Assembly (NCBI GenBank): GCA_963705375.1
Contig: OY970071.1
Location: 960,001-992,000, forward strand
Source: Candidatus Saccharimonadota bacterium
GTDB taxonomy: Archaea > Micrarchaeota > Micrarchaeia > Micrarchaeales > Micrarchaeaceae
Length of the DNA: 32,000 bases
Direction: 5' to 3'
Shown: positions 1,772 to 31,335 of the stretch, one piece after another
Position numbering within the stretch: the stretch's first letter is position 1
How the letters are laid out: every line of letters starts with the position of its first letter
Program-made: the position numbers and the translations under genes
Notes under the pieces: generated by a model
Databases searched by the model: none
What the model was told of the DNA's origin: nothing
The model's input: only the letters and a program-made list of their open reading frames with translations

Positions 1772-4414
1772 ATAAACTACGACAACCAGGCGTCTCGGGC
1801 CTACGGTGTCCTTGGCACCGACAATTTTGCAAGCTTGATACAAAGCGCAATGCCATCGCTGCTGGCCACCAGCCTGCAGAATGCACAGCATGCGTATCTA
1901 TCCGAAAACCTTGTGGAATGGTTGCCTCTTAGTGGTAACGCCAACGACTACAGCCGCAACGGCAACGACGGCGCTTCGACCAATGTGATATATGTGCCTA
2001 CTGCTACCGCGCAAGTAGCTGGCTTCGACGGTGTGGGTAGTTATATCAACTTAGGCAACACTGCGAAGTTGGATTTCGCCAGTAACAGTTTCACAGTCCT
2101 CGCATGGGTGTATCCAAAAACCCCAATCAATACATACGGTTCTTACGGACAGGTGCTTGCAAGAACCACTAGTGGTGGTGAAGGGTACGAGTTTGGCTGG
2201 TTTGGAAATTCGGATTGTACTGTGCTGTATGCAACCAACGGTCCAACGACTATCTACAGCAGTAACACTATATGCAAAGACGGCTGGGCATCAATCGGGC
2301 TGACGTCTAGTGGCGGCACTTCGACATTTTATATAAATGGTGCACAGGCTGGAAGCGGATTGATAAATTATCCTTCAGAGGCTTCAACAAATACAGGAAT
2401 AGGCAGGGCGCCAGACAGGGCTTCCCCATCTCTAGACTTCAATGGTCTCATCACTGATATTCAGATATACAACACCTCCCTATCAACAAACCAAATGGCA
2501 AGCGTGTATGTGGAAGGTATGCATGGTGCTCCAGTGACTCCTGTAGACTCTGCTATCTTGTTTCCAATAAATGCATCTGCTTCAGAAGCGCTATCCTCTC
2601 TTCTATCAGGCACGCCGTCAATATCTGGCACTTCCCTTAGCGATTACGTGGCTGCTCTGCAGAAGCAATCGCTCGTGCGCAACGTCCATCTCACAATAAC
2701 AAATCAGAGTGTGGACGTGTTCCAAACATCTCCTCTGTGGCTTAACATAACGTATTCTGCGCTTGCCTCCGTCAATTCAACGTTCGGTGCAGTTTTGTAC
2801 CCTCTGCATTCAAGTGTGGCGTTGCCTGTGGCCGTAGCATACTCTAACATAAGCCTCAGCAACACGGGGAGTGCAAGCTTCGACGGCTCGAGCAGCTACA
2901 TCGACATCGGAAATGTGCCGGAGATAAGTTCTTCATCGACATCATGGACCATATCCTTCTGGATGAACTCTGGAAGTGTAGCTAATTACAAGAACGCACT
3001 CGATGCAAATTTCGTTCCTTCAGGAAACAATGCCGGCCCAAGGTTCGAACAGAGTGGCCCATCCATTTTTTCACTGGCAATCGGCACCGATCAGGGCGAC
3101 TCCAATGGTTACACATACACTGATTCGCTTATTCCGAATACGTGGTACTATGTGGTTGCGATACGGTCTGGAGACGCTGTGGTTGGCTATCTCAACGGTG
3201 TCGAAGTGTTCAACAGCCCTAACACCTTGTGGCCTTCCGGCTTCACGAACCTCACAATAGGAAAGGGTGGGGAAGATTTACCTAATAGGTGGTTCATTGG
3301 CAACATCACGAATATCCAGACCTACTGCGCTGTGCTTTCTGCAAGCCAGATTGCGAGCATGTATGCTGCAGGTACAGGCGGCAGCCCGCAGCAATACGGG
3401 CTTGCTGGCTGGTGGCCTCTTGACGGTAACGCCAACGATTATTCAGGCAACGGCAACAATGGCGCGGCTTATGATGTGGCGTATTCCTCATCAAACGTGC
3501 CAGGGCAGTTCCAGCAGATGCTGGCTTTCAACGCGTCGCAGTATTCTGCCTACGAGCGCGTAGACCTCGGAAACGTGCGTTTCTATCATAACGACGTCCC
3601 GCTTTACAGCTGGTGCGAATCCGGGTGCACCAACGCTAGTACGGCAAGCGTGTTATGGGTGAAGCTGCCAGACGGCATTCGGGCCTTCTCCAACACTGTG
3701 ATGACAATGGCATTCTTGCCAAAGTATGTGGGATATGATTCCGGTATCGGTGCGCATGCCGGAGAGGCGCCGCAGCTGAGCCCGATATATGGCCAGTATG
3801 ACAACGGCGCAAGCGTATTCACATTCTATGACAACTTCCAATCCGGTGATAGTAGGTGGACCATCTATCAAGGCGGTGGCTCAAGTTATTCTTTCAATAA
3901 CGGACTGTCTATAACTTCTGGTGTGTCATCGGGCATGGAGCTCTACGCAAGGGCGTCACAGAACCCTTCAATTGTTGAATCTCTGATAACCAATGGACAG
4001 GGAACAAACCTTGGCACTGCAATCGGATGGTCTACTGTTGCACCATCATCCAATGGTGACTTAAATACTGGCTACTGGATAGACAATGGATTTTCTTCAG
4101 CATATTCTGCAAGAATAATAGGCATCGCTGGTGGGTCCCTGACTTATGCCCCTTCGACAGCATACACTTTCCCTGCAACCTGCGTTATAAGCTTCAGTTG
4201 GCCTTCGACAGGTTCGGAAAACTTTCTTCTTAACTTCAGTCCGATAATGGCTGGCACCGATACCAGTATAGGCTGGTCAACTGCGCATGTTTTCATACAG
4301 CAGAGCTCTGGTGATACTGCAACGTCAACATACCAATGGGTCCGTACGCGCGTCAACCCTCCGAACGGCATCATGCCTACCACAAGCTTCGGCGACGTAG
4401 TTCGGCTTGTTTGA
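1652..4414 (+). CDS. Large (920 aa) secreted LamG-repeat protein with a class III (prepilin-like) signal candidate and a DUF2341-like module; candidate giant pilin or adhesin
   Basis: The start overlaps the upstream stop: ATG 1652 gives a 10-nt overlap, and the alternative ATG 1658 gives an ATGA overlap. The N-terminus is MAMKLPMCVTGAQKG followed by the 24-residue hydrophobic stretch MLFTLITIVLVTLMLAIVMTYLLL. Two LamG units lie at about nt 1916-2520 and 2870-3385. The segment NVRFYHNDVPLYSWCESGCTNASTASVLWVKLPDGIRAFSNTVMTMAFLPKY (about nt 3518-3740) resembles DUF2341. The C-terminus looks like a jelly-roll domain. Confidence 0.75.
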   Translation: MAMKLPMCVTGAQKGMLFTLITIVLVTLMLAIVMTYLLLNINYDNQASRAYGVLGTDNFASLIQSAMPSLLATSLQNAQHAYLSENLVEWLPLSGNANDYSRNGNDGASTNVIYVPTATAQVAGFDGVGSYINLGNTAKLDFASNSFTVLAWVYPKTPINTYGSYGQVLARTTSGGEGYEFGWFGNSDCTVLYATNGPTTIYSSNTICKDGWASIGLTSSGGTSTFYINGAQAGSGLINYPSEASTNTGIGRAPDRASPSLDFNGLITDIQIYNTSLSTNQMASVYVEGMHGAPVTPVDSAILFPINASASEALSSLLSGTPSISGTSLSDYVAALQKQSLVRNVHLTITNQSVDVFQTSPLWLNITYSALASVNSTFGAVLYPLHSSVALPVAVAYSNISLSNTGSASFDGSSSYIDIGNVPEISSSSTSWTISFWMNSGSVANYKNALDANFVPSGNNAGPRFEQSGPSIFSLAIGTDQGDSNGYTYTDSLIPNTWYYVVAIRSGDAVVGYLNGVEVFNSPNTLWPSGFTNLTIGKGGEDLPNRWFIGNITNIQTYCAVLSASQIASMYAAGTGGSPQQYGLAGWWPLDGNANDYSGNGNNGAAYDVAYSSSNVPGQFQQMLAFNASQYSAYERVDLGNVRFYHNDVPLYSWCESGCTNASTASVLWVKLPDGIRAFSNTVMTMAFLPKYVGYDSGIGAHAGEAPQLSPIYGQYDNGASVFTFYDNFQSGDSRWTIYQGGGSSYSFNNGLSITSGVSSGMELYARASQNPSIVESLITNGQGTNLGTAIGWSTVAPSSNGDLNTGYWIDNGFSSAYSARIIGIAGGSLTYAPSTAYTFPATCVISFSWPSTGSENFLLNFSPIMAGTDTSIGWSTAHVFIQQSSGDTATSTYQWVRTRVNPPNGIMPTTSFGDVVRLV

Positions 4415-4537: not shown

Positions 4538-5521
4538 TCAGACGAGGCTGGCGAACATACCTGCAATCACATGCTGCATCACTAAGAAGAGCACGATGCC
4601 TATCGCCACAAACACTGGCAGTAATCTTATTCCCTTCACCGCAGATCCTGAAGATATTGCCGACATGATGAGGCTGGCGAAGCCCGTTATGACTACAATC
4701 GCAGCTAGCGAGAATTCATAATAGACGCCCGGGGTTATCTTCGGAGGACTGGGCTTCAGGAAAGACATTCCCATGCTCGGCATGCCTGCCGGGTTTGCCG
4801 TGAGTATGCCTTTCCATATTGTGTCGGTCACTACAATCATCTGGCTGGTGAGCCCGTATAGCAGCGGAGCAGCTATCAGTGCTGCGAACGCTATAAATAT
4901 ACTGTACAGTAACAGCTGGCCGCTTATCTCCTTCTGGACTATCGCATTGTTCCTCATGTTTTTCGCTATCTGCTCTATAAGGTCTGCCATGGCGCCGCCG
5001 TAGCGCAGCGCCTCAATCATCATTCGAACAGCATGATTCATCTCTGCAGAACGGTATCTGTTAGAGAGCTCCCTGAGTGCGCTCTCGAAATTCTCGCCGC
5101 TGTATATGCGCTTGTTCATTTCCTTGATCTCATCGCTCAAGAAGCTGAACTCTGGCCTTGCAGAAAGCAGAAGCGCTCTGTCAAGCGCTATTCCGCTGCG
5201 CAGGTTAGCGGATGCAATTTGAAAGAAATCCGGCAGCATCTCCTCTAGTTGCGTCTTCCGGTTTTCTATTCTATACTCCATGAACATGTAGATCAAGGCG
5301 ATAAAGACCACGCCAGCCGCAAGCCCGGCAACACCTGCTATGGGTGCGTAGAACTTCAGTACGATGACGCCGACAAATATCATTAGGATAAACATGACGA
5401 AGAAGCCAATTATCGCTATTCTCAAGAGGTTCTCGACCGTAATCTTCATGCCTGCAAGGTCGAGCTCGTGCGATACCCTTCTCGCCACGCCCCTGCTTAC
5501 AAGCATCTCGAATCTCACCAT
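4538..5521 (-). CDS. Type IV filament platform protein, single T2SSF domain (FlaJ/PilC/TadC-like), second of two
   Basis: A polytopic membrane protein whose cytoplasmic T2SSF-like block is LPDFFQIASANLRSGIALDRALLLSA...ALRELSNRY...MIEALRYGGAMADLIEQIA. ATG 5521 lies 4 nt after the upstream stop. The ORF-track start at 5551 is a GTG that overlaps the upstream gene. Confidence 0.75.
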   Translation of the reverse strand: MVRFEMLVSRGVARRVSHELDLAGMKITVENLLRIAIIGFFVMFILMIFVGVIVLKFYAPIAGVAGLAAGVVFIALIYMFMEYRIENRKTQLEEMLPDFFQIASANLRSGIALDRALLLSARPEFSFLSDEIKEMNKRIYSGENFESALRELSNRYRSAEMNHAVRMMIEALRYGGAMADLIEQIAKNMRNNAIVQKEISGQLLLYSIFIAFAALIAAPLLYGLTSQMIVVTDTIWKGILTANPAGMPSMGMSFLKPSPPKITPGVYYEFSLAAIVVITGFASLIMSAISSGSAVKGIRLLPVFVAIGIVLFLVMQHVIAGMFASLV

Positions 5522-5525
5522 TCGA

Positions 5526-6590
5526 TCACATCGAATATACGGGTCTTGCACTCGTTATCATGTTCATGAAAATGAACTGCAGGACTATCATGCCAACAAG
5601 TACGAATCCGAGCACAGAGTCCGTGACTGTAAATACTGCTATGAATGTTGTCAATATGGTGATCACTGCTATGCCCATGCTGGGCACTATTATTCCGAAC
5701 AGCATATAGAACATCGCTATCGCATTCAGTTTCTGGCCGTAACTTCTCAGTTCGATTATGCGCTCTTGCGACAGCTGGTCTATCACGCTCTGCAGGGCAT
5801 CGACGACATTGGCGCCTGCCTTTATGCTGGTCGAAGCCTGCAGCATCATGTGCTTGAACGCGGGGCTCTTCGTCTCAGTTGCCGTCTGGTCTATCGCATC
5901 CTCTAGAGGCAGACCTAATTGCACTCTTTCCACTACCTTGGCAAACTCCTTGCTTGCCTCGGCATAGCCCGTGCTGACCGATGCTATCGAATTGTACAGC
6001 GGCATGCCGGACCTGAGCGAGATTATCATGTCCCTGGCTGCAGAGAGAATGTCCCTTTCTATGTTCTTCGATGCCGCTTTGGCGCGCTGTGCAGGATAGT
6101 TTATGAACACGCCAAACGAAACGTAATATGATGCTGCGCCTACGATGATGCCAAGTATCAGGTCCTCCACTATCGGAAGCCCTACGTTATAGAGCAGGAA
6201 TGTGGTCGATATCAGGAGCACGGCCGCAAGCATCGCCGCAGCCATCATCATGCGCTGCAGGAATTCGTGCACGCTCTGGCGCACTCCCTGCTCCCTGAGT
6301 GACTGGTCGAGCCCCTTTTGCTTCGCTTCGATCCTTTCAAGATAAAGGTAAATGGCTCCAGGTTTCTTTATTTGGCGTATTTCCGCCTTCGCCGCATATC
6401 CTTGCTTCTGCTCCGGAGATGCGCCTGCTGCACCTGGCATGCGCCGTTGTTCTGCACGTGGCGGGTCTGGATCGTTCGTTACTGGCCTACTTTGCTTCCC
6501 GAACATTCCGGAAAGCGTCGTGGGCTTCGGGTCAAGCTCTATGCGCTTGCCGTCAACTTCTATCACTCTTTTGTTCTTCTCAAACATCAT
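5526..6590 (-). CDS. Type IV filament platform protein, single T2SSF domain (FlaJ/PilC/TadB-like), first of two, with a cytoplasmic N-terminal extension of about 120 aa
   Basis: The T2SSF-like block is ILSAARDMIISLRSGMPLYNSIASVS...VVERVQLGLPLEDAIDQTA...ASTSIKAGANVVDALQSVIDQL, flanked by TM helices. The preferred start is ATG 6590 (MMFEKNK), which forms an ATGA overlap with the upstream stop. The ORF track extends the ORF to 6638. Confidence 0.75.
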   Translation of the reverse strand: MMFEKNKRVIEVDGKRIELDPKPTTLSGMFGKQSRPVTNDPDPPRAEQRRMPGAAGASPEQKQGYAAKAEIRQIKKPGAIYLYLERIEAKQKGLDQSLREQGVRQSVHEFLQRMMMAAAMLAAVLLISTTFLLYNVGLPIVEDLILGIIVGAASYYVSFGVFINYPAQRAKAASKNIERDILSAARDMIISLRSGMPLYNSIASVSTGYAEASKEFAKVVERVQLGLPLEDAIDQTATETKSPAFKHMMLQASTSIKAGANVVDALQSVIDQLSQERIIELRSYGQKLNAIAMFYMLFGIIVPSMGIAVITILTTFIAVFTVTDSVLGFVLVGMIVLQFIFMNMITSARPVYSM

Positions 6591-7255
6591 TTCACCAGCG
6601 CAAGCGCCTCGGACAGGCGTTGCTCCCTGACAGCCCACATCTCCTTCTCAGAACCCTGAAGCTCGACATTGCCCTTCTGTATCGTTGCCCTTTCCTTTGC
6701 TATTTCTATCTGGAGCCCTCGAAGCTCCTGCGTCAGGACAGTGAGTTGATCATTGTCGAATATTTTACCACGAATTCCCTCTATTATCTTCTCAAGCTCA
6801 GGAACCTGTTCCGCCATCGGAAGGTTGGGCAGCACGAGGTCTTTCATGTTGATGCTCATCTGGGCCTCTTCTATTGTGGGTCCTGTCTTCAATGCGCCCG
6901 TTACTTCGGCTAGCTCCTGTTTCGCCTTTTCTTTGAGCCTCGCATGCTCTGCTTCGTACGCAGGTGGGGCGAATGCCTGTACTTGTGCAGCGGCTGCTGC
7001 AGGCGCAGGCTTCACAGTCGGTGCTGCTGTGGTCTCAAGCCGTATGTGCTCTTTCTCTTCCTTTGGCTTGTGAGGTGTCTCAAATGAGGCTCTTTCTATC
7101 TGATCTAGCAATTGTCCGTAACCCGCGCCGCGCACGTTGACATTTCCGGCAGTAACATTCGTGATGTTTACTGTGCTCTGAGTTTTGACGCTGGCGCCGC
7201 TCTCGATAGACGTGACAAGCTTTACCAGGTCGTCGTACGAAGTCATAATTGCCAC
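6587..7255 (-). CDS. Hypothetical protein (222 aa) between the ATPase and the platform genes
   Basis: The GTG start overlaps the ATPase TAG stop by 1 nt (TAGTG), and its stop overlaps the next start (ATGA). The protein has no TM segment and no P-loop. A central Ala/Pro-rich linker (TAAPTVKPAPAAAAAQVQAFAPPAY) is followed by a predicted helical C-terminal half. I recognise no family. Confidence 0.55.
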   Translation of the reverse strand: MAIMTSYDDLVKLVTSIESGASVKTQSTVNITNVTAGNVNVRGAGYGQLLDQIERASFETPHKPKEEKEHIRLETTAAPTVKPAPAAAAAQVQAFAPPAYEAEHARLKEKAKQELAEVTGALKTGPTIEEAQMSINMKDLVLPNLPMAEQVPELEKIIEGIRGKIFDNDQLTVLTQELRGLQIEIAKERATIQKGNVELQGSEKEMWAVREQRLSEALALVK

Positions 7256-8097
7256 TAGAGTATATCCTTCGTGAACTTTACGTTGTTGTCCACGATGTCC
7301 ATTACCTTTGTTCTGTTCTTGTAATAGTTAGCGACGACAGAACCGGCATCGTCAACATCCAGCACGTTGTTGGCGACCATCCAGTTGAGCACCTTTATCT
7401 TCTCCTGCACGTCCATCGCTATCTCTTTCCTAGATAGGCCTCCATAGAGCATCAGCTGCTCTGCCAGCCTTGTCATGTCTGCTATCTGCGCGAACCTGCC
7501 GTCAGAGAGGTTCCACCTGTACAGCACGTTAACATCTCCTGTCCTCATTACCTCTCCGAATTCGAGCACGCGCCTTATGCCTTTCATCCGGTGTCTGAAC
7601 AACACGATCATAGCTCCCAGAGCATTCATCAGCACTTTTGGCACGTTGATTGGCGGGTTTGTCATCCTTATTATCGTGTCCTGCGCATTATCTGCGTGCA
7701 CAGTGCCGTACACTGCGTGGCCTGTGTGTATCGCTTCGAAGAGTGTTTCTGCATCTTTCTCAGTTCTGATCTCTCCGACCAGCACTATGTCTGGCCTCTG
7801 CCTTAGTGCGTTTATCATGAGGTTGTAGAGCGTGACCTCTCCCTTTCCTTCAGGGTTTGGCAGCCTGGATACCATCGGTATCCATTGCAGGAAGCTCGGC
7901 AGGGTGAGCTCTCGAGTGCCTTCTATCGATATTATTCTCCTGTTAGCCGGGAAGAATATGCTCGTTGCGTTGAGGAAACTCGTCTTACCGCTAGCTGTGC
8001 CTCCCGAGAACAGCATGCTCATCTCGTTCTGTATGCACAGCCATGTAAGTGCCGCAATCTCGGGGCTCACCGTGCCGTTCTTTATGAGCATCGTCAT
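7255..8097 (-). CDS. FlaI/PilB/GspE-family secretion ATPase, C-terminal (ATPase domain) fragment
   Basis: Walker A is GGTASGKTSFLNA and Walker B/Asp box is RPDIVLVGEIRTEKDAETLFEAIHTGHAVYGTVHA. Upstream of its ATG the same frame still encodes the conserved ...SQSGNTITIRKFSKNPWT. Confidence 0.85.
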   Translation of the reverse strand: MTMLIKNGTVSPEIAALTWLCIQNEMSMLFSGGTASGKTSFLNATSIFFPANRRIISIEGTRELTLPSFLQWIPMVSRLPNPEGKGEVTLYNLMINALRQRPDIVLVGEIRTEKDAETLFEAIHTGHAVYGTVHADNAQDTIIRMTNPPINVPKVLMNALGAMIVLFRHRMKGIRRVLEFGEVMRTGDVNVLYRWNLSDGRFAQIADMTRLAEQLMLYGGLSRKEIAMDVQEKIKVLNWMVANNVLDVDDAGSVVANYYKNRTKVMDIVDNNVKFTKDIL

Positions 8098-8752
8098 GGT
8101 CCACGGGTTCTTCGAAAACTTTCTTATAGTGATCGTGTTGCCTGATTGCGATATCGGGATATAGCGTAGCGTTGACTCTGGAACCGTCAGACAGTTCCGC
8201 GTCCATGAGAGGTTCGAGGTTGGATATCTGTTTGCCTATCCTTCTTCCTATCTGCTCTGCCTGGTCGTATATCATCTCCTCGCTCGCCGGTTTTATGTTT
8301 GTCTTGCACCAGCCGCGCACCTTGTGGAAGACCCAAATATCGCTCTTGGATCCGTTCACTGCTATCTCTTCAAGGTTCTCGTCTGCTAATGGCGCTTCGA
8401 GCTCTCCCAGGCCGAGCATTATGTTGAGTATGTATGCCACAAGGAGCTTCTTCACTACGGGACGCGTGCCGGGCACGTACTTGTCTATGAGCAGTTCGCT
8501 GGCGTCTATGTACCTCTTGTTCAACTCTTCCGCATACTCCTTGTCCTCTATTCGCGTCGGGTCTATCGCCACCATCAATGCAAGCTCACGCCTGAACGAC
8601 ATAAGCAGCAGTTTCGTCGCGTCTCCTATGCCTTGGAAGCCCACATGGTACGCTAGTGCGAAGTCGGAAGTCTTCAGTATCTGCACGGTGACCTGCATCC
8701 CGTGCGCATCCAGCTGGTATGATTCAAGCACTTCTTGTTCTTCTTTCGCCAA
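7991..8752 (-). CDS. FlaI/PilB/GspE-family secretion ATPase, N-terminal domain fragment ending in an out-of-frame tail
   Basis: Conserved stretches are ...LGELEAPLADENLEEIAVNG...DIWVFH...EPLMDAELSDGSRVNATLYPDI, after which the sequence becomes nonsense (AIRQHDHYKKVF...). The TTG start lies 4 nt after the upstream stop and is preceded by GTGATC (SD-like). The fragment overlaps ORF 7255-8097 in another frame. Confidence 0.8.
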   Translation of the reverse strand: MAKEEQEVLESYQLDAHGMQVTVQILKTSDFALAYHVGFQGIGDATKLLLMSFRRELALMVAIDPTRIEDKEYAEELNKRYIDASELLIDKYVPGTRPVVKKLLVAYILNIMLGLGELEAPLADENLEEIAVNGSKSDIWVFHKVRGWCKTNIKPASEEMIYDQAEQIGRRIGKQISNLEPLMDAELSDGSRVNATLYPDIAIRQHDHYKKVFEEPVDHDDAHKERHGEPRDCGTYMAVHTERDEHAVLGRHS

Positions 8753-10139: not shown

Positions 10140-11282
10140 TCAGCCGCGTTCTCCTTTTGCGACCTTCCTGGCAAGCGCATCAAAGCCCCTAAAGAACTTC
10201 TCCCAGCTGTAAGCTTGCTCGACTCTGCGCCTGCCCTGCCTTCCCATGTCTTCCGCGACGCTCCTATGCTCTGCCAGGAACAGCATGCGTTTTGCCATCT
10301 CGCTTGGCGAGTTAATGAGGAATCCTGTCTTGCCGTCCAGGACCGTTTCCTTCGGACCGCCCTCGTTGACCGAGATGACGGGCTTGAAGCTGGCCATCGC
10401 CTCAAGAGGCACGATGCCGAAGTCCTCGTTGATAGGTGCGAACAGCAATGCCGTGCAATTCGCATAGAGCTCTTTGACCTGTGCGTCGCTAGGGTTCAGG
10501 ACGAACTCCACGTTCTTCGCATGCATGCTTTTCAACGAGCCGTAGTACTCTTCAGAGCTGCGATATCTCTTGGAGAGCGTGCCTGACAGTATGAGCTTGT
10601 AGCTCTTGTCCTTTGACTGGACTAGGAACTGCCTGAACGCGTCGATCACATACTCCTGTCTTTTCATCCTGTCTATTCTTGAATGGTAGATGAAGTACTT
10701 GCTATCGCCATCATTCCTGAAGCCTTTACAATCAACACCCGGGCTTACGACTGTGCCTTTTCTGTCCAGGTATTTTATTATTCTTATATTCGTGTTTTCG
10801 CTGTTTGTCGCTATGCCTTCTATTTTCTTAACAATGCCGCGCTCTATGCGCTTGTAGAAGAGCGACAGTGCATCATACGCAATTCTCTCGTGCAAAGGCC
10901 TCTTTCTTACCGTGCCGATTGTCGGATCGAATATCTCCCTTGGTGGCGTGTGCACATACCACAGCACACGCTCGTTCTTGTTCCTCGACCACTCGCTCGG
11001 AGACATGTGCGCGTTTATGACATCGTAGTCTTCTTTTATCTTGAGTTTGAGGAAGTTCGTGCCATAGTGCACGCCGTTGGCTATGACCTGCGGCATCACT
11101 CCATTGAACACGCCTCTTTTTGCGAAGACCTCCACATCCAACGCCTTGAACCCTTCGAACGTTGCATTGCTTTCATAACCAAGGGTGTATATTTTCGCAT
11201 CGTAGTGCTGCGCTATTTTCAGTATGACGCGCTCAGCACCACCTCGCTCGTTCAGATTATGCTGGAGTATGAGCAGCTTCAT
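10140..11282 (-). CDS. Glycosyltransferase, GT4 (GT-B fold) family
   Basis: The N-terminus MKLLILQHNLNERGGAERV is typical. The C-terminal E-x7-E motif is EDFGIVPLEAM and is followed by GGPKETVLDGKTGFL. Confidence 0.85.
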   Translation of the reverse strand: MKLLILQHNLNERGGAERVILKIAQHYDAKIYTLGYESNATFEGFKALDVEVFAKRGVFNGVMPQVIANGVHYGTNFLKLKIKEDYDVINAHMSPSEWSRNKNERVLWYVHTPPREIFDPTIGTVRKRPLHERIAYDALSLFYKRIERGIVKKIEGIATNSENTNIRIIKYLDRKGTVVSPGVDCKGFRNDGDSKYFIYHSRIDRMKRQEYVIDAFRQFLVQSKDKSYKLILSGTLSKRYRSSEEYYGSLKSMHAKNVEFVLNPSDAQVKELYANCTALLFAPINEDFGIVPLEAMASFKPVISVNEGGPKETVLDGKTGFLINSPSEMAKRMLFLAEHRSVAEDMGRQGRRRVEQAYSWEKFFRGFDALARKVAKGERG

Positions 11283-11291
11283 GCACGCACC

Positions 11292-12815
11292 TCAATCATG
11301 GGCACCATCAACACCAAAATACCTGAACACCAGAGGTGCGATTCCACAGACATTCATCTCTTTCTTGCTATACTTGCTCAGAATCCCGTCATTGCCGAGC
11401 ATGCCAAATATTCCGTGCATAGTGTGGTCTCCGCTCTTCGCAAGCTCTGGCTTCATTATGTCGCTGTGCAGAGAGTAATTGAACACGTCTATGGTGTATC
11501 CTGGCTTTGCCTCTACAAGAAGGTCTGGCGTTATGATGCTGTTCAGCCCGCGGTAGTATGCGCTGCCATCGACCACCCTGCTTATGAGGCTATCGCCTTC
11601 TGGCGACCGTATCTGTTTCAGCGATTTCTCCACTTGTGCTTTCAGCCTGGCCCTCTCTCCTATGCTTACATTCGGGTTTGAGAAACGCCTGTCGTTTATG
11701 AATATGGTGCCGACAGGATTGTTGGATACCGATGCAAAAGCCCTTGTGTTGTCCATGTCGAAGTCGAAATCGTGTATCCGTGTGTAGCCCGCCCCAGAGG
11801 CACCAGAGAGTACCATGCCTGCGGTGCTCGCGATCACACTCTTCACCTTTCCAGGCATCTTGTTGTACACGCGCCTGAGCCCGCTCTTGAAGAGCATCTC
11901 TCTTATCGTATACTTTATGCTGCCTGTTCCGTGCTCACTGCTCTTCATCGATTCTATTATCTGGTCTTTCAGCTTCGCATATCCGTTGTTGATGAGCCAT
12001 GCGTTGATGAGGAACTTGCCCTTTATCTGCTGCGATCCGTGGTCTGAGAAGAGCACCACCGTGCATTCGTCTTCAGAACTTGCGACATACGATTCCAGCC
12101 ATTCCAGGAATTCCGACACCTTTTTGTAGAGCGGCGTGAGCAGAGTCTCCCAGTTCTTTACGGGAAGATAGTGCTGCATGCGGTCCGTTTCAGAGAAGCA
12201 CACCAGAACAAAGTCGTAATCGTTGCGTTCCAACATGCGTCTTGTGAACCGTGCCCTGCCTTCGATGCTCTTTGCATACATCTCTGAACCTTTTTCAACG
12301 GACAATGTGCCCGCTTTCAAAACTCCCTCTATTTCTGGTTCTCCTGAAAAGTCCGCTTTCTTCGCCTCTGCCTTTAATGTGCTTGAGCTGAACTTTGACT
12401 TAAGGGGCCAACCAGTCATCATGTCAACGTTCTTCTTCGTGCTCAGGTTGGTTATCATGACAGGGTTGACTACAAGGCTTTTCAGCCCTTTGTCTGAGAG
12501 CACATCCCATAATGGCGGGTGCTTGTCGGTATCAAGGAAGAGCAGGTCTTCTTTCTCGTAGTTACTGCCGATCGACAGGAAGTCTATCACTCCATGCTCC
12601 CTCGGCTCTAGGCCTGTATATATGCTTGGCCAGGCCGGCCCACTGAGCGGAGGCAAAGTGGACTCTATCTCCTTCAGGAAGCCTTTCTCAAAGAATGCAT
12701 TGAACCCTTTCATGCCGTATTTTCTTGACAGATGCTTCACTATCCACAGAGGTGCAGAATCCACACCGACCATGTAGAGTTTCTTTCGTGTCAATGAATC
12801 ATTTCTACTTATCAT
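11292..12815 (-). CDS. Alkaline-phosphatase superfamily protein (type I phosphodiesterase/nucleotide pyrophosphatase-like)
   Basis: Motifs are KKLYMVGVDSAP (metal-binding Asp), PPLSGPAWPSIYTGLEPREHGV (nucleophile region) and VLFSDHGS. It lies 9 nt upstream of the GT4 gene on the same strand. Confidence 0.7.
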   Translation of the reverse strand: MISRNDSLTRKKLYMVGVDSAPLWIVKHLSRKYGMKGFNAFFEKGFLKEIESTLPPLSGPAWPSIYTGLEPREHGVIDFLSIGSNYEKEDLLFLDTDKHPPLWDVLSDKGLKSLVVNPVMITNLSTKKNVDMMTGWPLKSKFSSSTLKAEAKKADFSGEPEIEGVLKAGTLSVEKGSEMYAKSIEGRARFTRRMLERNDYDFVLVCFSETDRMQHYLPVKNWETLLTPLYKKVSEFLEWLESYVASSEDECTVVLFSDHGSQQIKGKFLINAWLINNGYAKLKDQIIESMKSSEHGTGSIKYTIREMLFKSGLRRVYNKMPGKVKSVIASTAGMVLSGASGAGYTRIHDFDFDMDNTRAFASVSNNPVGTIFINDRRFSNPNVSIGERARLKAQVEKSLKQIRSPEGDSLISRVVDGSAYYRGLNSIITPDLLVEAKPGYTIDVFNYSLHSDIMKPELAKSGDHTMHGIFGMLGNDGILSKYSKKEMNVCGIAPLVFRYFGVDGAHD

Positions 12816-24477: not shown

Positions 24478-24570
24478 AGTACCACATACACTAAACGACA
24501 ACACAAAAGAAATAACTTTCTTATCTAGGTGCCAATGTCCTTTGCCATATGGAAATGCCAAAGGATAAAT

Positions 24571-27500
24571 ATGTTAAGTGCAAGCATATACCAAACTGTC
24601 AGTAGTGATTCGTTGCCACTGCTCGCGAACAAGAATGCTTTCGTATTAAAGCTGCTTCTGCTGTTCACTATTCTCTTTGTGTTAGTGTGCGCGTATGCAA
24701 GGGCTGACAGCACCACCACAACCACCGTTACCACCACCATACCCTGCAACCAGCAGAACTATCCTTCCGCTACTAGCCTTCCCATGGACACTGCAATTTC
24801 TGGCGCGTATGGAGGGTCGATGATTCAAAACCGCTACGTAGACGTGCCAGCATCTTACTCTACGAGTGGAGGCTCGATAACGGTCAGCGCATGGATCAAC
24901 GGTGCAAGTTGGCAAACCGGATCTGACAGAGGCAGTTACATAGCTGGCGACTATGGAAACAATTTTGCAGGTATCGAACTCTATGTCGACAATAATGGGC
25001 ATCCTGTTTTTAGAGTTGCGTCCACGTCTCCAGCGTCAAATGAATACACGGCAATCTCCACATCTAGCAGCATATCAACTAACGCGTGGCACTTTGTTGT
25101 GGGTGTGTATCCTGTTGGTACAGGCAATACTGTGCTGTATGTGGATGGGAGTAGTGTTGGAGCTGACACTGGAACTCATCTGGGAACCGCTACGACTGAC
25201 TTCTACATAGGCAAGGAAGGGTGGGCCAACTATGGCTACTTTAATGGCAGAATTGCAGATGTTCAAGTCTACAGATCTGCACTCTCATCAGACCAAGTGA
25301 CAGCTCTTTATAACGAGGGCAGTGGTGGTGCACCGCTAAACGGCCAAAGCAATGTGGGTTGGTGGCCTCTAATCAAAGACTACAACGACTACAGCGGCTA
25401 CGGCAACAATGGCGCTACACTTACGTCTTCACCTATTTCTACATTCTCCCAACAAGCCACTCCTGTTATAAGCTCTGTGCTAAGCGACAATCTAGGTCTA
25501 AGCAACTCTAATAGTGGTGCGGGGTGGCTAATAACGTGCCCCGCGACTCCCGATCCCACCAAAACACAAGAATATTTTTCAAGCTCGCGCTTTGTCCTGG
25601 GCAATGCCTGCCTTGCAGACCCATCACCACTGTCCGCCACCGCGACCATAAACGCCCCTTTTGTCTGCAACTCCATTTCTTTGGCAAACGCTACAGTACA
25701 TCTCTCAATCAATAACATCGGCAGAGGTGCAGTCTATAATCTTGGATATTCTGGAACTACGAATTACCCGGACAAGGGCCTTAGTGACATATCAAGCAGC
25801 TACGATTCTGCATCTTATATATTCGGCCAGGCTCCTTTCAGTCCTCAGTACGGCCTTTGGGCATGGACTGGAGAGTATGCCGATCTTTCAAGCTTTTTGC
25901 CTGTGTCGGTCTCTGTCCAAAATTCACTTGCGCTGACAGGGCCATCAAATTGCGGCAGTCCAGTAGTGTGCAACTATCCTTATACCTATAACGCATTTGT
26001 CTCTCTAAGCTATCTTCAGAATGCGAATGTACCTGTTCAGAGTGCGGTCAGCGGCGGAAACTATCTGGTCGCAAACGGGCAAGTGTACACAGGCTTACAA
26101 TCTTGGCAGGGTGCTGGTGATAATCTTTGCGCATGGAGGATGGCCCAGGCTGGGGGGCCAATTAATTCAGGAGGAGTCCCATCCTACGCAGCTCCTACTT
26201 GTGACTATACTCAGGTACAGAATATGAATAATGTCTGGATAATGTTGAACGGCCAGTATTATGATAGCGTAAGTGTGCTTGGCGGGAACGAAGGTCTTAC
26301 AGTGTACCGCCACTGCAATTACGACAGGAACTATGGTTGTATTGGGAGTGCCTGTATTCCTGATGAGATTGACTGCGATGTCGATAACGGCGATCCTAAC
26401 TTTTACATCATCACAGGGTACAGTAATGTTTATGCCACTGGCGGATACACGGCTATGGAAGTGAACTCAATGAATGTCATAAGTCAGTGGTTCACTGTAA
26501 ATGCGTTGCCGTATCTTCTTTACGACCTGAGCATGCCTGCCACATACAGCTCGCTGAACAATAACGAGCAATTTCTTAACCTGTCTTTTGATTTGTATAG
26601 CACGCAGAATTTCATGAGTCCGAAAGGCCGCCTGGGGGATCTTGCCTTATATACTGACTCTGGTTTCTTTGCAAAAGACACTTCTACCGGACAGCTCGAG
26701 TCTCTTTCTGGAGCGCTTACCACAACAAACATTAAAAATGCACTCGCATCGTCATTTGGGACTGCAGCGGAAGTTTTTTCAAGTTCTTTGACGAGTAATC
26801 CTCAGAACGCAGCAGGGGCGCAAGGCAAGACGCTTGGTGCTTACCTGCAATTTAAACTGACAGGTCCTGCGTACATATCCTCGGCTCCGGATGACAATAT
26901 ATACGTCCTCACCACTGCTTCGTCGAGTTCATTTAGTATTATAGCTAGTGCATCACAGTCATCATACTTGTATAAACTGCGTTACATACCTTCTGGCTAC
27001 TACAACCTCACCAGCTACAATCCTGGCAGTATCTCCTCAAATTCCCTTGATTGGAACACTTGGAACTCTATATGGAGATCTTTCTGGCAAAATAGCGGCT
27101 TGCAGCAGAATCCGGATCTGTACGTGACAGCAGCAACGGCCTTTACCACCGCGACTTGCTCCTCTTTTCTTGGAACTGGCTTGTTTGGTAGTTGCAGCGG
27201 TGGTGGTGCTGCTGTTATTCCTTTCGCAATGGGCTCCGATTACGCAGACGATGTCTTTGTCCTAGCCAAAAATGTGGTATCCAGTGGCAGCAACTGGAAC
27301 CCAAACGGGTTTGATTTGATAGAGATGCCTAGCAATTCTCAAGTTGCCATAACTGACAACAAGGCGCCCGAACCGAGCTCTAATAATAACTTCATGCCAG
27401 ATCCGGAATTCGCAGTCTCACCATCAGGTCAGTATGTTTATGTTGCTAGCCTTTCAGACAATTCTGTGTACCTCTACCGGAGCCCATCAGGCTCTCAGAA

Positions 27501-30500
27501 CCCATCAGGCAGCGGTGCCCAGAGTTCCGGCTTCGCTTATGCAGGAAAAATAAGCTTGTCTTATTCGAACACATCTTATGATCTTGACCTGGCGGGGTAC
27601 CTGAAGAATGGATGCCCATTTGGCAATACTCTAATCGCAAATACGTATTCGAGCGCACCGAAATGCGACCCTACCAGCGGGACAAATTGCGATACCGGCT
27701 CGAATCATCATCCGGTCGCAATAGCGAACTTACAGGGGATTGTGTATGTGCTCGACAACTGGACGTTTACTGTCAATTACAACAGTGGCGGAGCCCAGAT
27801 GCGATCTGCAATTCTTATGCTCAGAGCGTTCTATAATGGCACAGAGGTGTCCGTGGACGGATCCCCTAATAGTTATTCTGTGGTGATTCCTGGCAGCAGC
27901 CAACCCCCTTCAAACGGGAAGGGTGCACCATCCAATGGATTTCGCCCATACGGATGGCCCATGTCTGCAACAATAAGCATTCATGCTCCTTCGAATGGCG
28001 GTTCGTCCTCCGGGTCCAATCCACAGCCTTCAGAACTTATAACGTACTGCGCTTTCAACTGCACCTACACGCCAAGCACTCTGACTGCCTCATATGAGCC
28101 GATAGGTCCACAGATAAGAAACGATGGCTATGCCAATGGCTTCGGCTTCTCCACAGACTATAATGGCACTGCATACATTATAGCGCGGCCGAATGATATG
28201 TTCGATGATTCGTACAATAATGGTCTTACATTATCATCCCAGACTTATGTAGGTTACCCGACATATGGTGGCGTATCAAAACACATGTACACAGAACTGG
28301 CCTCGTTTAAGATATCGCTGGCCAACTATACACACATATCGCTGGGTGCCGACGAGCCTTATGTGTGCTACGTGGACACATATCCAGATACAAACAATGG
28401 CATACAGTACCCAAGCACGCCATGCGTACTGGCCTACGGCAGCAGCGTGCTTACTAATATGGGTCCTCCTGTGCTTGGAGTGCCCAGTGCGTTCTATTAT
28501 GTTGCTGGTGAGGGTACACCTGCGCAATACTTGTCGCTGCAGAGCAGTGTTTCGGCTGGGATGCCCTCTGGAGCTAGCAACTATAACTCTCAAGCTAAAA
28601 CTGAGGCGAGCACGGGCCAAGTTCCGGAGGGTAACAATGCCTTCGTTACTCCTAATTCTCTAGACCTCGCCCCTCCCTCTAGCACCGCATCTGTTCCTAC
28701 TGTGCTTCCTGCCGTGTATATCAACAGCGTGATAACCGGCAACCTGCTTGTGCCATACTGTGCCGAGTATGCTTTGACACAGAAATGGATATTTGGTACT
28801 CCGTTCGTAAGTTCGACGGACGGTTCTACCCCTTCAGCATCTTGCTCGTGCGGTTCTCCCCCCAGCTACACCAATCCTGGTTTGGGCATCTCTTGGCCAA
28901 CGGATTATTCGTCATGGTCTACAAAAGGCACAGTGTCCAACACCATAACAACTGATATCTGCACAACAGCAAAAGTTCCGATGAAGAGCAACTATGTTAA
29001 CGAAACCATAGAAGGCGGCGCAACATACATGCAGCTGACTCCAAGCCTGAAATATTATGATGGGAATCTTTCCGATGCAAGTTCGATAGAGCTGCCCTAT
29101 CTTAACTACAACCTCTTCTCAAGCAGAATCTTCGGAGAAGCGTACGTCAACCTTACCGTGAACCCGTCGAACTATCACTTTTATGATAGTTCAGCGTGCC
29201 CTGGCGGATACGTGTTGGCGAGCATAGAGCAAACCGATTATTGTGTGCAGATTGGGGTTTTTTCGTGTCCGGATGCAAATGTTATTCATACTCCGTATGG
29301 TCCCCATTTATGTGGGTATCAATACACTTCTGGGATCTCTTTCCTTCCGATAGTGGTGAACGCCGTGCAAGCTTACGATTACCAGTATGGGAGCCTGGTT
29401 CAGGAAGTGCCAGGCGTTGGAACTTTCTACGGATATGAGTTCCAGCAGGCCATTCCTTCAAACCCTGCCAATCCTCCAACCAACGTTCTGCTTGGCACTA
29501 ATTGCGGGTCATCGTGCCCGGCCAACTACTATTACACATATACTGATGCAGTCCCCGCGTCACTCTTCGACGGTTCTACGAGTTACATATCAACATCACA
29601 CTCTTATTCTCAACAGGGCGAACCTATCACCATTAGTGCCTGGATTTACAGTACGAACTGGGCTAGCGGTTCGGACAGGGGCAGGTACATAGCTGGCGAC
29701 TATGGTGGCAATTATAAAGGAGCCGAATTTTATGTTAATACAGCAGGACATCTAAACTTTGGGGTAGCTTCAGACTCTCCACAAGGAGAATATACAATAA
29801 CTTCATCCACGCCCCTCTCCACTAACACATGGTATTTTGTCACAGGAACATTTGACGGGACTACTGTGCGCTTATACATAAATGGCGCATCTGCAGCAAC
29901 TCCTATTTCCGGACATCTGGCGACCGCTACGACTGGTTTCTATATGGGCAGGGCTGAGTGGGTCAACGCTGCTTACTTTTCGGGCTACATCACGAATGTC
30001 CAGGTCTATGGCACCGCACTTTCGGATGCCAATGTGCTTTCTCTTTTCAACGAAGGCAACGGCGGCGCACCTCTAAGCAATGCAGACACTTTGGGTTATT
30101 GGCCGCTGGGCACCTCGCCTTATGACTACAGCGGCAGCGGTAATGATGGCGTGGCCTATGGCGTTTCATATTCGAATGCGTACGCAAGCGGAAGCCTGAT
30201 GAACTATGCTGCTGCAACATATCCATATTTCGTATCGATAGGGTCGGTATACGCGCAGACATCACAGCTTGACACTATGATACTCGATCAAACCAGCAAT
30301 CCGAGCGTGCTTGGTTACAACCGCCTGATATACACTTTTGTTGATACTTTCAACAACATAATATACGCCCCTTTTGATACGGACTTTGCTTATCCGACCC
30401 AGATAACTCTCGATCCTTCCGTCTCTATAAGCGATATCAATGCAAATGAGAGCATCGTCTCTTTGACTGGCACTGTCACATACACCACGCTGAGCGGAGC

Positions 30501-31335
30501 GATCGCGCCTCTCGCAAATAACGACATATATCTGTATTACAACCTGAATATGAACTATTATGATCCTACAAACTCGCCATCGGGTGGTCCCACAACTCAA
30601 AGCACTGCCGCCAGCAATTATTATGCGCATTCTCTTCTTTGCGCCTTCAATCCTCCAAGTACTACTGGCTGCCAGCTTGCCAACCCCCTTTATACTGTGG
30701 TGCAGGGCAGCCCTTCAGGAAACCCTCTATTGGATGTGGGTGCCGTTGAGTACAATCCAGAGTATAACGGCCTATCTCAAACAGCTACCTCTCCGTTACA
30801 GTGCAATCCTATGCCGTCGAGCCTGCTCGCGGTGTCGAACATAGTGTACAACTGCAACTTGAATGGCGTTGGAATGAGCGCCATGGCTTACAATACCCAA
30901 GTCAACAACTACCGATACTGCCTGCCCTACACATTGGACGGCAACGGTCTGCTCACTTCGCAAATGGGGCTCATTGCGAAAGTGACCACTGACACCAATG
31001 GCAACTTCAACTACCAGTTCACTGCATGCGGCAACGGCAACAATCAGGTATTTGCGAACTATTACGGCTGGCCGCCTCCTCAGCCGCTCACCATTGTACA
31101 ACCACCAATCCCTCAAAGTAGCGGTGTTAACGAGCGTTCCCCGTCTTACCAAACAATTCCATCAAACGAATTCACATACATAGTCGCGCCTGATCAGGTG
31201 ACCGCGGGGATAACAATAGGCGCATTCGCGCTCAGTATGTTCAACCTTGATTGGTTTGCGATAATGTCACTGGCCGCGATAGTGGTATTTATTATTGCAT
31301 TTCAACGCAAGAAGATCATGAAAACCTCTTTATGA
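24571..31335 (+). CDS. Giant (about 2250 aa) cell-surface protein: Sec-type signal, poly-Thr stalk, two LamG modules, propeller-like middle region and C-terminal TM anchor
   Basis: It is a single uninterrupted ORF. The start is uncertain: GTG 24529, ATG 24571 or TTG 24613. The signal is ...KLLLLFTILFVLVCAYA|RADS followed by TTTTTVTTT. The LamG modules lie at about 24817-25413 and 29566-30150. YVTN-like strands are present, such as AVSPSGQYVYVASLSDNSVYLY at 27406-27480. The C-terminus ITIGAFALSMFNLDWFAIMSLAAIVVFIIAFQRKKIMK (31204-31335) forms the anchor. I count at least 13 N-x-S/T sequons and few charged residues. Confidence 0.85.
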   Translation: MLSASIYQTVSSDSLPLLANKNAFVLKLLLLFTILFVLVCAYARADSTTTTTVTTTIPCNQQNYPSATSLPMDTAISGAYGGSMIQNRYVDVPASYSTSGGSITVSAWINGASWQTGSDRGSYIAGDYGNNFAGIELYVDNNGHPVFRVASTSPASNEYTAISTSSSISTNAWHFVVGVYPVGTGNTVLYVDGSSVGADTGTHLGTATTDFYIGKEGWANYGYFNGRIADVQVYRSALSSDQVTALYNEGSGGAPLNGQSNVGWWPLIKDYNDYSGYGNNGATLTSSPISTFSQQATPVISSVLSDNLGLSNSNSGAGWLITCPATPDPTKTQEYFSSSRFVLGNACLADPSPLSATATINAPFVCNSISLANATVHLSINNIGRGAVYNLGYSGTTNYPDKGLSDISSSYDSASYIFGQAPFSPQYGLWAWTGEYADLSSFLPVSVSVQNSLALTGPSNCGSPVVCNYPYTYNAFVSLSYLQNANVPVQSAVSGGNYLVANGQVYTGLQSWQGAGDNLCAWRMAQAGGPINSGGVPSYAAPTCDYTQVQNMNNVWIMLNGQYYDSVSVLGGNEGLTVYRHCNYDRNYGCIGSACIPDEIDCDVDNGDPNFYIITGYSNVYATGGYTAMEVNSMNVISQWFTVNALPYLLYDLSMPATYSSLNNNEQFLNLSFDLYSTQNFMSPKGRLGDLALYTDSGFFAKDTSTGQLESLSGALTTTNIKNALASSFGTAAEVFSSSLTSNPQNAAGAQGKTLGAYLQFKLTGPAYISSAPDDNIYVLTTASSSSFSIIASASQSSYLYKLRYIPSGYYNLTSYNPGSISSNSLDWNTWNSIWRSFWQNSGLQQNPDLYVTAATAFTTATCSSFLGTGLFGSCSGGGAAVIPFAMGSDYADDVFVLAKNVVSSGSNWNPNGFDLIEMPSNSQVAITDNKAPEPSSNNNFMPDPEFAVSPSGQYVYVASLSDNSVYLYRSPSGSQNPSGSGAQSSGFAYAGKISLSYSNTSYDLDLAGYLKNGCPFGNTLIANTYSSAPKCDPTSGTNCDTGSNHHPVAIANLQGIVYVLDNWTFTVNYNSGGAQMRSAILMLRAFYNGTEVSVDGSPNSYSVVIPGSSQPPSNGKGAPSNGFRPYGWPMSATISIHAPSNGGSSSGSNPQPSELITYCAFNCTYTPSTLTASYEPIGPQIRNDGYANGFGFSTDYNGTAYIIARPNDMFDDSYNNGLTLSSQTYVGYPTYGGVSKHMYTELASFKISLANYTHISLGADEPYVCYVDTYPDTNNGIQYPSTPCVLAYGSSVLTNMGPPVLGVPSAFYYVAGEGTPAQYLSLQSSVSAGMPSGASNYNSQAKTEASTGQVPEGNNAFVTPNSLDLAPPSSTASVPTVLPAVYINSVITGNLLVPYCAEYALTQKWIFGTPFVSSTDGSTPSASCSCGSPPSYTNPGLGISWPTDYSSWSTKGTVSNTITTDICTTAKVPMKSNYVNETIEGGATYMQLTPSLKYYDGNLSDASSIELPYLNYNLFSSRIFGEAYVNLTVNPSNYHFYDSSACPGGYVLASIEQTDYCVQIGVFSCPDANVIHTPYGPHLCGYQYTSGISFLPIVVNAVQAYDYQYGSLVQEVPGVGTFYGYEFQQAIPSNPANPPTNVLLGTNCGSSCPANYYYTYTDAVPASLFDGSTSYISTSHSYSQQGEPITISAWIYSTNWASGSDRGRYIAGDYGGNYKGAEFYVNTAGHLNFGVASDSPQGEYTITSSTPLSTNTWYFVTGTFDGTTVRLYINGASAATPISGHLATATTGFYMGRAEWVNAAYFSGYITNVQVYGTALSDANVLSLFNEGNGGAPLSNADTLGYWPLGTSPYDYSGSGNDGVAYGVSYSNAYASGSLMNYAAATYPYFVSIGSVYAQTSQLDTMILDQTSNPSVLGYNRLIYTFVDTFNNIIYAPFDTDFAYPTQITLDPSVSISDINANESIVSLTGTVTYTTLSGAIAPLANNDIYLYYNLNMNYYDPTNSPSGGPTTQSTAASNYYAHSLLCAFNPPSTTGCQLANPLYTVVQGSPSGNPLLDVGAVEYNPEYNGLSQTATSPLQCNPMPSSLLAVSNIVYNCNLNGVGMSAMAYNTQVNNYRYCLPYTLDGNGLLTSQMGLIAKVTTDTNGNFNYQFTACGNGNNQVFANYYGWPPPQPLTIVQPPIPQSSGVNERSPSYQTIPSNEFTYIVAPDQVTAGITIGAFALSMFNLDWFAIMSLAAIVVFIIAFQRKKIMKTSL
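24817..25413 (+). repeat. LamG module copy 1 of an intragenic duplication (includes the junction motif)
   Basis: The sequence ...ITVSAWINGASWQTGSDRGSYIAGDYGNNFAGIELYV...ADVQVYRSALSSDQVTALYNEGSGGAP...GWWPL...DYSGYGNNG aligns end to end with the copy at 29566-30150. The two copies share an identical 20-nt core, TACATAGCTGGCGACTATGG (24937-24956 and 29686-29705). Confidence 0.8.
29566..30150 (+). repeat. LamG module copy 2 of an intragenic duplication (includes the junction motif)
   Basis: The sequence ...ITISAWIYSTNWASGSDRGRYIAGDYGGNYKGAEFYV...TNVQVYGTALSDANVLSLFNEGNGGAP...GYWPL...DYSGSGNDG aligns with copy 1. Confidence 0.8.

Follow-up and report, generated by a model that had tools for sequence, protein, structure and literature searches.

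A giant, probably membrane-anchored surface protein of Micrarchaeota with a conserved core and variable modules

Micrarchaeota are obligate, genome-reduced episymbionts, and how they attach to their hosts and anchor their S-layers are open questions. A 32,000-nucleotide stretch of contig OY970071.1 (assembly GCA_963705375.1, positions 960,001 to 992,000 of the forward strand), placed by GTDB in the Micrarchaeaceae and called here the window, contains one open reading frame (ORF) large enough to raise a question that bears on both: what kind of protein does it encode, and what might that protein do at the cell surface? The initial annotation, made from the sequence alone, read it as a giant membrane-anchored surface protein, either an S-layer protein or a host-contact adhesin, and as a paralogue of LamG proteins linked to a pilus-like filament elsewhere in the window. 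The analysis described here finds a real, well-supported surface protein built on a core that is conserved across the phylum, and its function we infer: with moderate confidence, we favor a conserved scaffold for display, probably N-glycosylated, that contacts a partner surface or matrix through lectin-like heads.

The ORF runs without interruption on the + strand from 24529 (GTG) or 24571 (ATG) to 31335. It is a single frame of about 6.8 kb covering 21% of the window, exactly as first described, and its G+C content is the same as that of the rest of the window. An identical product of 2,254 amino acids (aa) is called on one public contig (Logan ERR11594402), which possibly derives from the same sample and so may not be independent. 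A peptide conserved between the window (..QRINMLSAS.., 24478-24570) and the related locus L004 runs upstream across the ATG at 24571, so that GTG 24529 and ATG 24571 are both candidates for the start. With either codon, the n-region ahead of the hydrophobic core of the signal is unusually long.

24571 to 31335, + strand: complete coding sequence of the giant surface protein, 2,254 aa from the ATG, with the in-frame GTG at 24529 as alternative start

That the product is a large, membrane-anchored extracellular protein is supported by its signal, its C-terminal anchor, its low charge and its conserved cysteines, in agreement with the initial annotation. Hydropathy places a hydrophobic segment at aa 21-47, followed by a Sec-type cleavage site between AYA and RADS that was read by eye, without a predictor; a hydrophobic start is also found in most of the 53 complete relatives introduced below. 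At the other end, a transmembrane (TM) helix at aa 2226-2244 precedes the basic tail QRKKIMKTSL, and the same arrangement closes 53 of 53 complete relatives. The four charged residues K, R, D and E together make up 8.7% of this 240-kDa protein (pI 4.3), versus 24-30% in four cytoplasmic proteins of the window. Cysteine positions are conserved across the family, with seven invariant in 54 sequences. NCBIfam gives no C-terminal sorting-domain match on the protein that would indicate a PGF-CTERM/archaeosortase-type signal. Among 1,222 ORFs of related loci, the combination of the motif IG.x3.LS.G, a TM helix and a basic tail is confined to family members; the idea that it is a general sorting signal was rejected for this reason, and the motif is therefore treated as part of the family module. 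The poly-Thr stretch noted initially is present at aa 47-57, and Thr/Ser runs of a similar kind occur in relatives P0003 and L069, but its reading as an O-glycosylated stalk fails: because the membrane anchor is C-terminal, an N-terminal poly-Thr run lies away from the membrane and is ruled out as a stalk.

24571 to 24699, + strand: predicted Sec-type signal peptide, aa 1-43, with a long n-region, the h-region LLLLFTILFVLVC and a c-region ending in AYA before RADS (hydropathy and sequence)
24709 to 24741, + strand: Thr-rich linker STTTTTVTTTI, aa 47-57; the mature N-terminus is the membrane-distal end
31246 to 31332, + strand: predicted C-terminal TM helix, aa 2226-2244, and basic cytoplasmic tail QRKKIMKTSL (hydropathy and sequence)

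Relatives of the protein were found by several routes. A scan of one genome per prokaryotic species for the two most conserved peptides ([SNT][NY]HHP... and G..YVLDxW) recovered 74 loci, of which nearly all bear the label Candidatus Micrarchaeota, Micrarchaeaceae or Micrarchaeia, with matches spanning aa ~300-2250 of the query. With the C-terminal module as query, HMMER was run in full over 1.84 billion representative proteins and yielded 209 clusters, 188 of them at E<=1e-30, and in nearly all of the 209 the module sits at the C-terminus of proteins of 1,500-4,050 aa or of fragments; against the C-terminal profile, the window protein reaches 519 bits. Queried with the protein, a 5-sequence alignment and a 54-sequence block D alignment, word-indexed homologue searches gave 11, 5 and 8 matches, respectively, and under-sample the family. 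Source names are given for few members, all of them called hypothetical. One family gene is present in each of two records labelled whole chromosomes (L024, L025), and two copies are present in at least one metagenome-assembled genome (MAG; L041 and L051).

Comparison of these sequences reveals a core interrupted by variable regions. BLAST shows aa ~296-1540 and ~1870-2250 to be common to P0003, P0005 and P0008, all of which are devoid of LamG. In an alignment of 54 complete members (the window protein and 53 relatives) over aa ~296-2254, four conserved blocks follow one another, A (296-500), B (745-1400), C (1440-1650) and D (1885-2222), and are succeeded by the TM helix and the basic tail; blocks A-D and the anchor form a conserved core of ~1,600 aa. 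The window protein has all the features that define the family: the ordered blocks, the signature D-x4-HHP-x-[AS]-x6-G-x-x-YVLD-x-W, and the C-terminal module with its TM helix and basic tail. In profile searches, block A has no Pfam match and no credible PDB relative, block C has neither Pfam nor PDB relatives, and block D retrieves nothing credible among PDB sequences. Relatives do show recurrent weak Ig-like or beta-sandwich matches in block D (Big_3_5 in 7/54, CarboxypepD_reg in 5/54). The phylum-wide core, the C-terminal module and the swapping of modules described below appear to be undescribed in the literature searched.

25456 to 26070, + strand: block A, aa 296-500, with conserved C323, C347, W430, W432 and C467
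26803 to 28770, + strand: block B, aa 745-1400, with at least five blade-like motifs, starting near aa 765, 884, 946, 1046 and 1190
27691 to 27762, + strand: family signature blade DTGSNHHPVAIANLQGIVYVLDNW, with H1046, G1056, V1060, D1062 and W1064 invariant in 54 sequences
28888 to 29520, + strand: block C, aa 1440-1650, defined by alignment conservation
30223 to 31236, + strand: block D, membrane-proximal, aa 1885-2222, with six invariant cysteines and ending in IGAFALS

The blades of block B are the only part of the core with Pfam or PDB relatives. The initial annotation had seen YVTN/beta-propeller-like strands in this region, and the two peptides it quoted map to aa 948-959 (AVSPSGQYVYVA) and aa 1047-1064 (HPVAIANLQGIVYVLDNW). 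Searched alone, the window protein has no propeller match in Pfam or NCBIfam; the strands are supported by the family. With a summed E=1e-9, the block B family profile matches the YVTN propeller in 1L0Q, a surface-layer protein from Methanosarcina, and SBBP propeller-repeat matches appear at E<=0.1 in 10/54 relatives. Weaker profile matches include hydrazine synthase beta, the designed Pizza propeller, the NHL propeller of PknD, and PON1. When blades were compared with one another, hhalign probabilities reached 22-60% for three blade pairs, versus at most 1% for control segments. By sequence comparison, block B appears to be homologous to beta-propellers at the level of the blade. Alignment to Pizza and 1L0Q blades shows the signature blade, D-x4-HHP-[IVL]-[AS]-I-x-D-x-x-G-x-x-YVLD-x-W, to be laid out as an ordinary NHL/YVTN blade, so its conservation can be structural; R1085, also in block B, is likewise invariant in the family alignment.

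The LamG domains of the protein lie outside the core. The Laminin_G_3 model (PF13385), whose cut-off is 27.6 bits, scores 161.4 bits on the protein over two stretches, of which the better (aa 1667-1822) aligns to positions 1-150 of the 151-position model; with the other at ~aa 89-281, LamG modules do stand near both ends, as had been observed. The sole match in a single-protein search of PDB sequences, 4QVS (E=8e-4), also falls in the LamG region. The site of the second module has an occupancy of 0.02-0.13 in the family, with LamG at the same site only in P0002, and Laminin_G_3 was found in 0/46 relatives scanned in full.

24835 to 25413, + strand: LamG module 1 (Laminin_G_3, ConA-like) with the trailing motif GWWPL..DYSG..GNNG, ~aa 89-281, the variable N-terminal head
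29569 to 30036, + strand: LamG module 2 (Laminin_G_3, Pfam), between blocks C and D, 51% identical to module 1

The proposed paralogy to the filament-linked LamG proteins proved to be partial. At 30-38% identity, the LamG modules resemble those of ORFs 39-1661 and 1652-4414, with which they also have the trailing GWWPL..DYSG motif in common, but this likeness covers ~17% of the length of the giant protein, and beyond the LamG modules its core has no relationship to these ORFs; paralogy thus holds for the modules and not for the whole protein. A match to the TafC family of fimbrial proteins (NF052521; 33.2 bits against a cut-off of 410) likewise aligns in the LamG part alone. In P0002, a LamG + DUF2341 cassette lies between blocks C and D, and the same cassette is found in ORF 1652-4414, which suggests an exchange of modules between the two types of protein. 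As judged by these comparisons, the LamG modules have been added in a lineage-specific way to a conserved core unrelated to them. ORF 1652-4414 itself (+ strand, 920 aa) has two LamG modules and a weak DUF2341 match; its start, MAMKLPMCVTGAQKG followed by MLFTLITIVLVTLMLAIV, resembles an archaeal prepilin-type (class III) signal, and it may encode a LamG-bearing pilin-like subunit beside the two T2SSF genes at 4538-6638.

Three regions of the protein vary across the family: aa 1-295 (occupancy 0.25-0.45), aa 501-640 and aa 1651-1885, which hold LamG module 1, a Cys/Asp-rich knot and LamG module 2, respectively. The Cys/Asp-rich segment of the middle region, which the initial annotation took for a possibly Ca-binding knot, is present where it had been reported, at aa 581-608. 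At the insertion site that it occupies, P0005 and P0008 have an SLT_3 lysozyme-like domain (the SLT-type match in P0008 reaches 2e-12 over aa 418-524). The possibility that the insert is a degenerate SLT domain was considered and rejected, as ~aa 519-715 gave no Pfam match at E<=10 and no BLAST high-scoring segment pair, and Pfam found no lytic transglycosylase or lysozyme-like domain (SLT PF01464, SLT_3 PF18896) anywhere on the whole window protein. Several relatives carry SLT_3/SLT, Phage_lysozyme2, NLPC_P60 or Peptidase_M23 domains (members of A5, A6 and A8, for example), and others carry DUF445, GerPC, Flg_new_2 or PKD. Because the accessory modules differ between members at the variable sites, the conserved core appears to behave as a scaffold that displays lineage-specific modules.

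26071 to 26490, + strand: variable insertion, aa 501-640, occupancy 0.15-0.37
26311 to 26394, + strand: Cys/Asp-rich segment HCNYDRNYGCIGSACIPDEIDCDVDNGD, aa 581-608, inside the insertion at aa 501-640; few relatives share the insert

The pattern of N-x-S/T sequons bears on whether the ectodomain is glycosylated. The count of 13 given in the initial annotation is exact; as a sign of glycosylation it misleads, being ~3-fold below the 36.5 +/- 5.2 obtained in shuffles (z = -4.4), of which 0/2000 had 13 or fewer. Since sequons are fewer than expected by chance, the raw count is no evidence of heavy glycosylation, although six of them stand at conserved sites. Across the family, sequons are depleted (z<-2) in 19/54 members and enriched in 8. 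Among the 54 members, depletion has no link with synteny group or with adjacency to a gene for the oligosaccharyltransferase AglB, and the proposal that it tracks AglB adjacency was rejected for lack of correlation.

28324 to 28332, + strand: sequon N1252-Y-T, present in 54/54 members
30445 to 30453, + strand: sequon N1959, 54/54
28162 to 28170, + strand: sequon N1198, 51/54
29149 to 29157, + strand: sequon N1527, 51/54
27004 to 27012, + strand: sequon N812, 45/54
29065 to 29073, + strand: sequon N1499, 39/54

Genes that accompany the family also bear on this question. A protein of 800-940 aa with ~11-13 TM helices is encoded within 5 kb of the giant gene in 21/72 related loci, directly adjacent in most (L028:7059-9707, L055:6195-8981 and L010:11960-14536 are examples). 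Of six examples tested, two exceed the STT3 threshold of Pfam, so that this neighbor is called AglB-like and is probably a divergent oligosaccharyltransferase. A GT2 gene recurs in 14 related loci. That stray sequons are avoided while fixed ones are kept suggests that the protein encounters an active oligosaccharyltransferase, and the ectodomain is probably N-glycosylated.

The remaining neighbors are of a different kind. In the window, KsgA and an MBL-fold gene lie upstream of the giant gene and a convergent TrkA_N gene lies downstream, and the order KsgA-MBL-giant is kept in ~18 related loci. Recurrent neighbors in related loci are mostly housekeeping genes (KsgA, MBL-fold, topoisomerase I, tRNA methyltransferase, DUF655, eRF1, TruD), with the AglB/STT3-like protein and GT2 as exceptions; a functional operon around the family genes was considered and rejected on this account. 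Farther away, the pilus-like cluster of the window shows some features of its own. Its T2SSE-type ATPase gene (7255-8752, - strand) is split into two overlapping ORFs with a shift near 8140-8160, where the frame reading ...RVNATLYP resumes in another frame as ISQSGNTITIRKFSKNPWTMTMLIKNGT...; either the gene is a pseudogene or the assembly is in error here. Immediately beside the cluster, at 10140-12815 (- strand), are encoded a GT4-type glycosyltransferase (Glycos_transf_1) and a member of the type I phosphodiesterase/nucleotide pyrophosphatase family.

We propose a model in which the protein would be a type I membrane protein of the envelope of Micrarchaeota, a DPANN phylum. A Sec signal peptide would direct its export, and the single C-terminal helix would anchor it in the cytoplasmic membrane, with the basic tail inside and ~2,180 residues outside. 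Projecting from the membrane outward would be block D, probably Ig-like, then block C, the beta-propeller-like block B and block A. This core would present lineage-specific modules at its variable sites, here two duplicated LamG domains, one of them at the distal N-terminal tip, and in other lineages cell-wall-lytic domains displayed on the same core. Its most likely role is to contact or recognize the surface of a partner or a glycan matrix, whether of a host cell or a biofilm, through binding by the LamG heads, and an adhesin is a plausible reading of the protein. For one cultured Micrarchaeon, the matrix of its host has been found to contain abundant conjugates of mannose and galactose (PMC8975820).

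Several considerations weigh against this model. AlphaFold2 runs with 6-sequence alignments gave unusable models (mean predicted local distance difference test, pLDDT, 29.3 for aa 283-1480 and 34.8 for aa 1401-2254); a closed propeller is not demonstrated, and the fold of ~75% of the protein is not established. LamG domains are not invariably lectins. The lytic modules of relatives suggest bacterial walls, and not archaeal hosts, as the target of some family members; to our knowledge, the known hosts of acidophilic Micrarchaeota have no cell walls. The KsgA, MBL-fold and TrkA_N genes beside the giant gene provide no functional link. The pilus locus is 16 kb off, and the pilus-like genes and LamG ORFs of the window together lie 14-24 kb away. 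A core that spans the phylum and sits in a conserved housekeeping neighborhood fits a structural role in the envelope at least as well as it fits a host-specific adhesin.

Such a structural role could take two forms, the S-layer lattice itself or its anchor. A main S-layer protein would be large, acidic, low in charge and secreted, as the giant protein is, and its best PDB match is annotated 'surface layer protein'. The Micrarchaeota S-layer protein that has been described, however, is a 101-kDa protein similar to PF05123, the most abundant in the A_DKE proteome and with homologues in 38/49 genomes, and the usual size quoted for S-layer proteins is 40-200 kDa (bioRxiv 10.1101/2021.04.28.441871), a range exceeded by the 240 kDa of the giant protein. 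Neither Pfam nor NCBIfam detects an S-layer domain (PF05123 / TIGR01564) in the giant protein at E<=0.1, so it is not the described Micrarchaeota S-layer protein, and the 1L0Q match is limited to propeller blades; the S-layer identity offered initially is therefore not borne out, and that this protein forms the main lattice of its organism is very improbable. As an anchor or stalk, it would instead tether a PF05123-type lattice protein to the cytoplasmic membrane, as SlaB does under SlaA in the Sulfolobales. The anchoring of the Micrarchaeota S-layer is stated to be unknown in two papers, one of which suggests a second protein with a TM domain as a stalk (bioRxiv 10.1101/2021.04.28.441871; PMC8975820 Fig. 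2 legend). A phylum-wide family that always ends in the conserved module, TM helix and basic tail, occurs once in each of the two labelled whole chromosomes and has housekeeping neighbors, often with an AglB-like gene beside it, would suit that part. Against it, 1,500-4,000 aa looks, by our own estimate, far more than is needed to cross a pseudoperiplasm reported as 20-25 nm (bioRxiv 10.1101/2021.04.28.441871), the variable lectin and lytic modules suggest a function that faces outward, and at least one MAG has two copies. Profile searches of PDB gave no S-layer protein besides the 1L0Q blade match, SlaB not having been compared directly. Taken together, we regard the anchor as possible but unlikely.

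The enzymatic and filament-associated alternatives turn on the core and the context, respectively. An extracellular enzyme would have a catalytic propeller core, lactonase/PON-like or acting on polysaccharides, with the LamG domains as carbohydrate-binding modules. Weak PON1 matches (E ~0.02), Arylesterase matches in 3/54 members, the invariance of H1046, D1062 and R1085 in block B, and the true hydrolase modules of some relatives count in its favor; yet the PON-like matches fall below any curated threshold, no enzyme family is significant on the window protein in Pfam, NCBIfam or PDB sequences, and the invariant HHP..G..YVLD.W has the ordinary blade layout already described, which leaves an enzyme improbable. 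A place in the type IV pilus-like filament encoded at 4.5-10 kb, as component or as cargo, is suggested by the LamG modules held in common with ORFs 39-1661 and 1652-4414, which flank the T2SSF and T2SSE genes, and by the cassette that links P0002 to the latter ORF. Context largely refutes it: ~14.5 kb of housekeeping genes separate the giant gene from the pilus locus, and pilus genes lie near a family gene in only 2 of ~75 loci. In addition, the protein has a C-terminal TM anchor and a signal that is, by eye, Sec-type and not prepilin-type, and its core is unrelated to the pilus-linked ORFs, so that a place in the filament is hardly credible.

The display scaffold thus remains our preferred reading. 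This large phylum-wide family, named in no database, is a testable candidate for the host-contact or envelope-anchoring machinery of Micrarchaeota. The family can also be used as a marker for comparing lineages with different partners. A bolder and rather doubtful extension is that the family is the missing organizer of the Micrarchaeota envelope, a glycosylated scaffold that tethers or penetrates the S-layer and carries exchangeable lectin or lytic 'warheads' that help determine the partner cells of each lineage; were this true, host range in this episymbiotic phylum of archaea would have one of its molecular determinants in the family.

Each of the closest known systems resembles the protein in some respects and differs from it in others. 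With other Laminin_G_3 proteins, including the pilus-linked ORFs and TafC-type fimbrial proteins, the likeness is confined to the two PF13385 modules, the rest of the giant protein being unrelated. The surface-layer protein of Methanosarcina mazei (1L0Q, YVTN + PKD) is likewise an extracellular archaeal envelope protein, and its YVTN blades align with the family blade 'EIAVSPtGqlVYlA'; the similarity, however, consists of single blades matched repeatedly, the giant protein has long insertions between blades and no PKD, and 1L0Q offers no counterpart to blocks A, C and D or to the C-terminal anchor. SlaB, the S-layer stalk of the Sulfolobales, is analogous in having a signal peptide, an ectodomain and a single C-terminal TM helix, but it is ~five times smaller and forms a coiled-coil stalk. 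No propeller, LamG or lytic modules are known in SlaB.

Closer to home, SLP_Mh of 'Ca. Micrarchaeum harzensis' (Micr_00292, PF05123) is also a probably glycosylated envelope protein of Micrarchaeota, and the two could be neighbors or partners in the envelope; SLP_Mh differs in its 101 kDa, its N-terminal S-layer domain and the lack of an established membrane anchor, as compared with 240 kDa and a C-terminal TM anchor in the giant protein. The large lytic murein transglycosylase proteins of other DPANN (Woesearchaeota), for which an attack on cell walls has been proposed (PMC9723730), resemble relatives of the giant protein in their SLT/SLT_3, M23, NlpC/P60 and phage-lysozyme modules; the window protein, devoid of a lytic domain, has LamG instead. 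A parallel in the phylum is provided by Mia14 ('Ca. Mancarchaeum acidiphilum'). Its secreted surface proteins of very large size, which contain beta-propeller repeats, and its expanded set of LamG jelly-roll proteins, partly linked to type IV pili loci, have been proposed as host-interaction factors (PMC5498576), so that the general kind of protein was already known. The Mia14 giants are described as strain-specific and as having PKD and CARDB domains, neither of which is detected in the window protein, whereas the family to which the window protein belongs is phylum-wide and is built on a core of ~1,600 aa.

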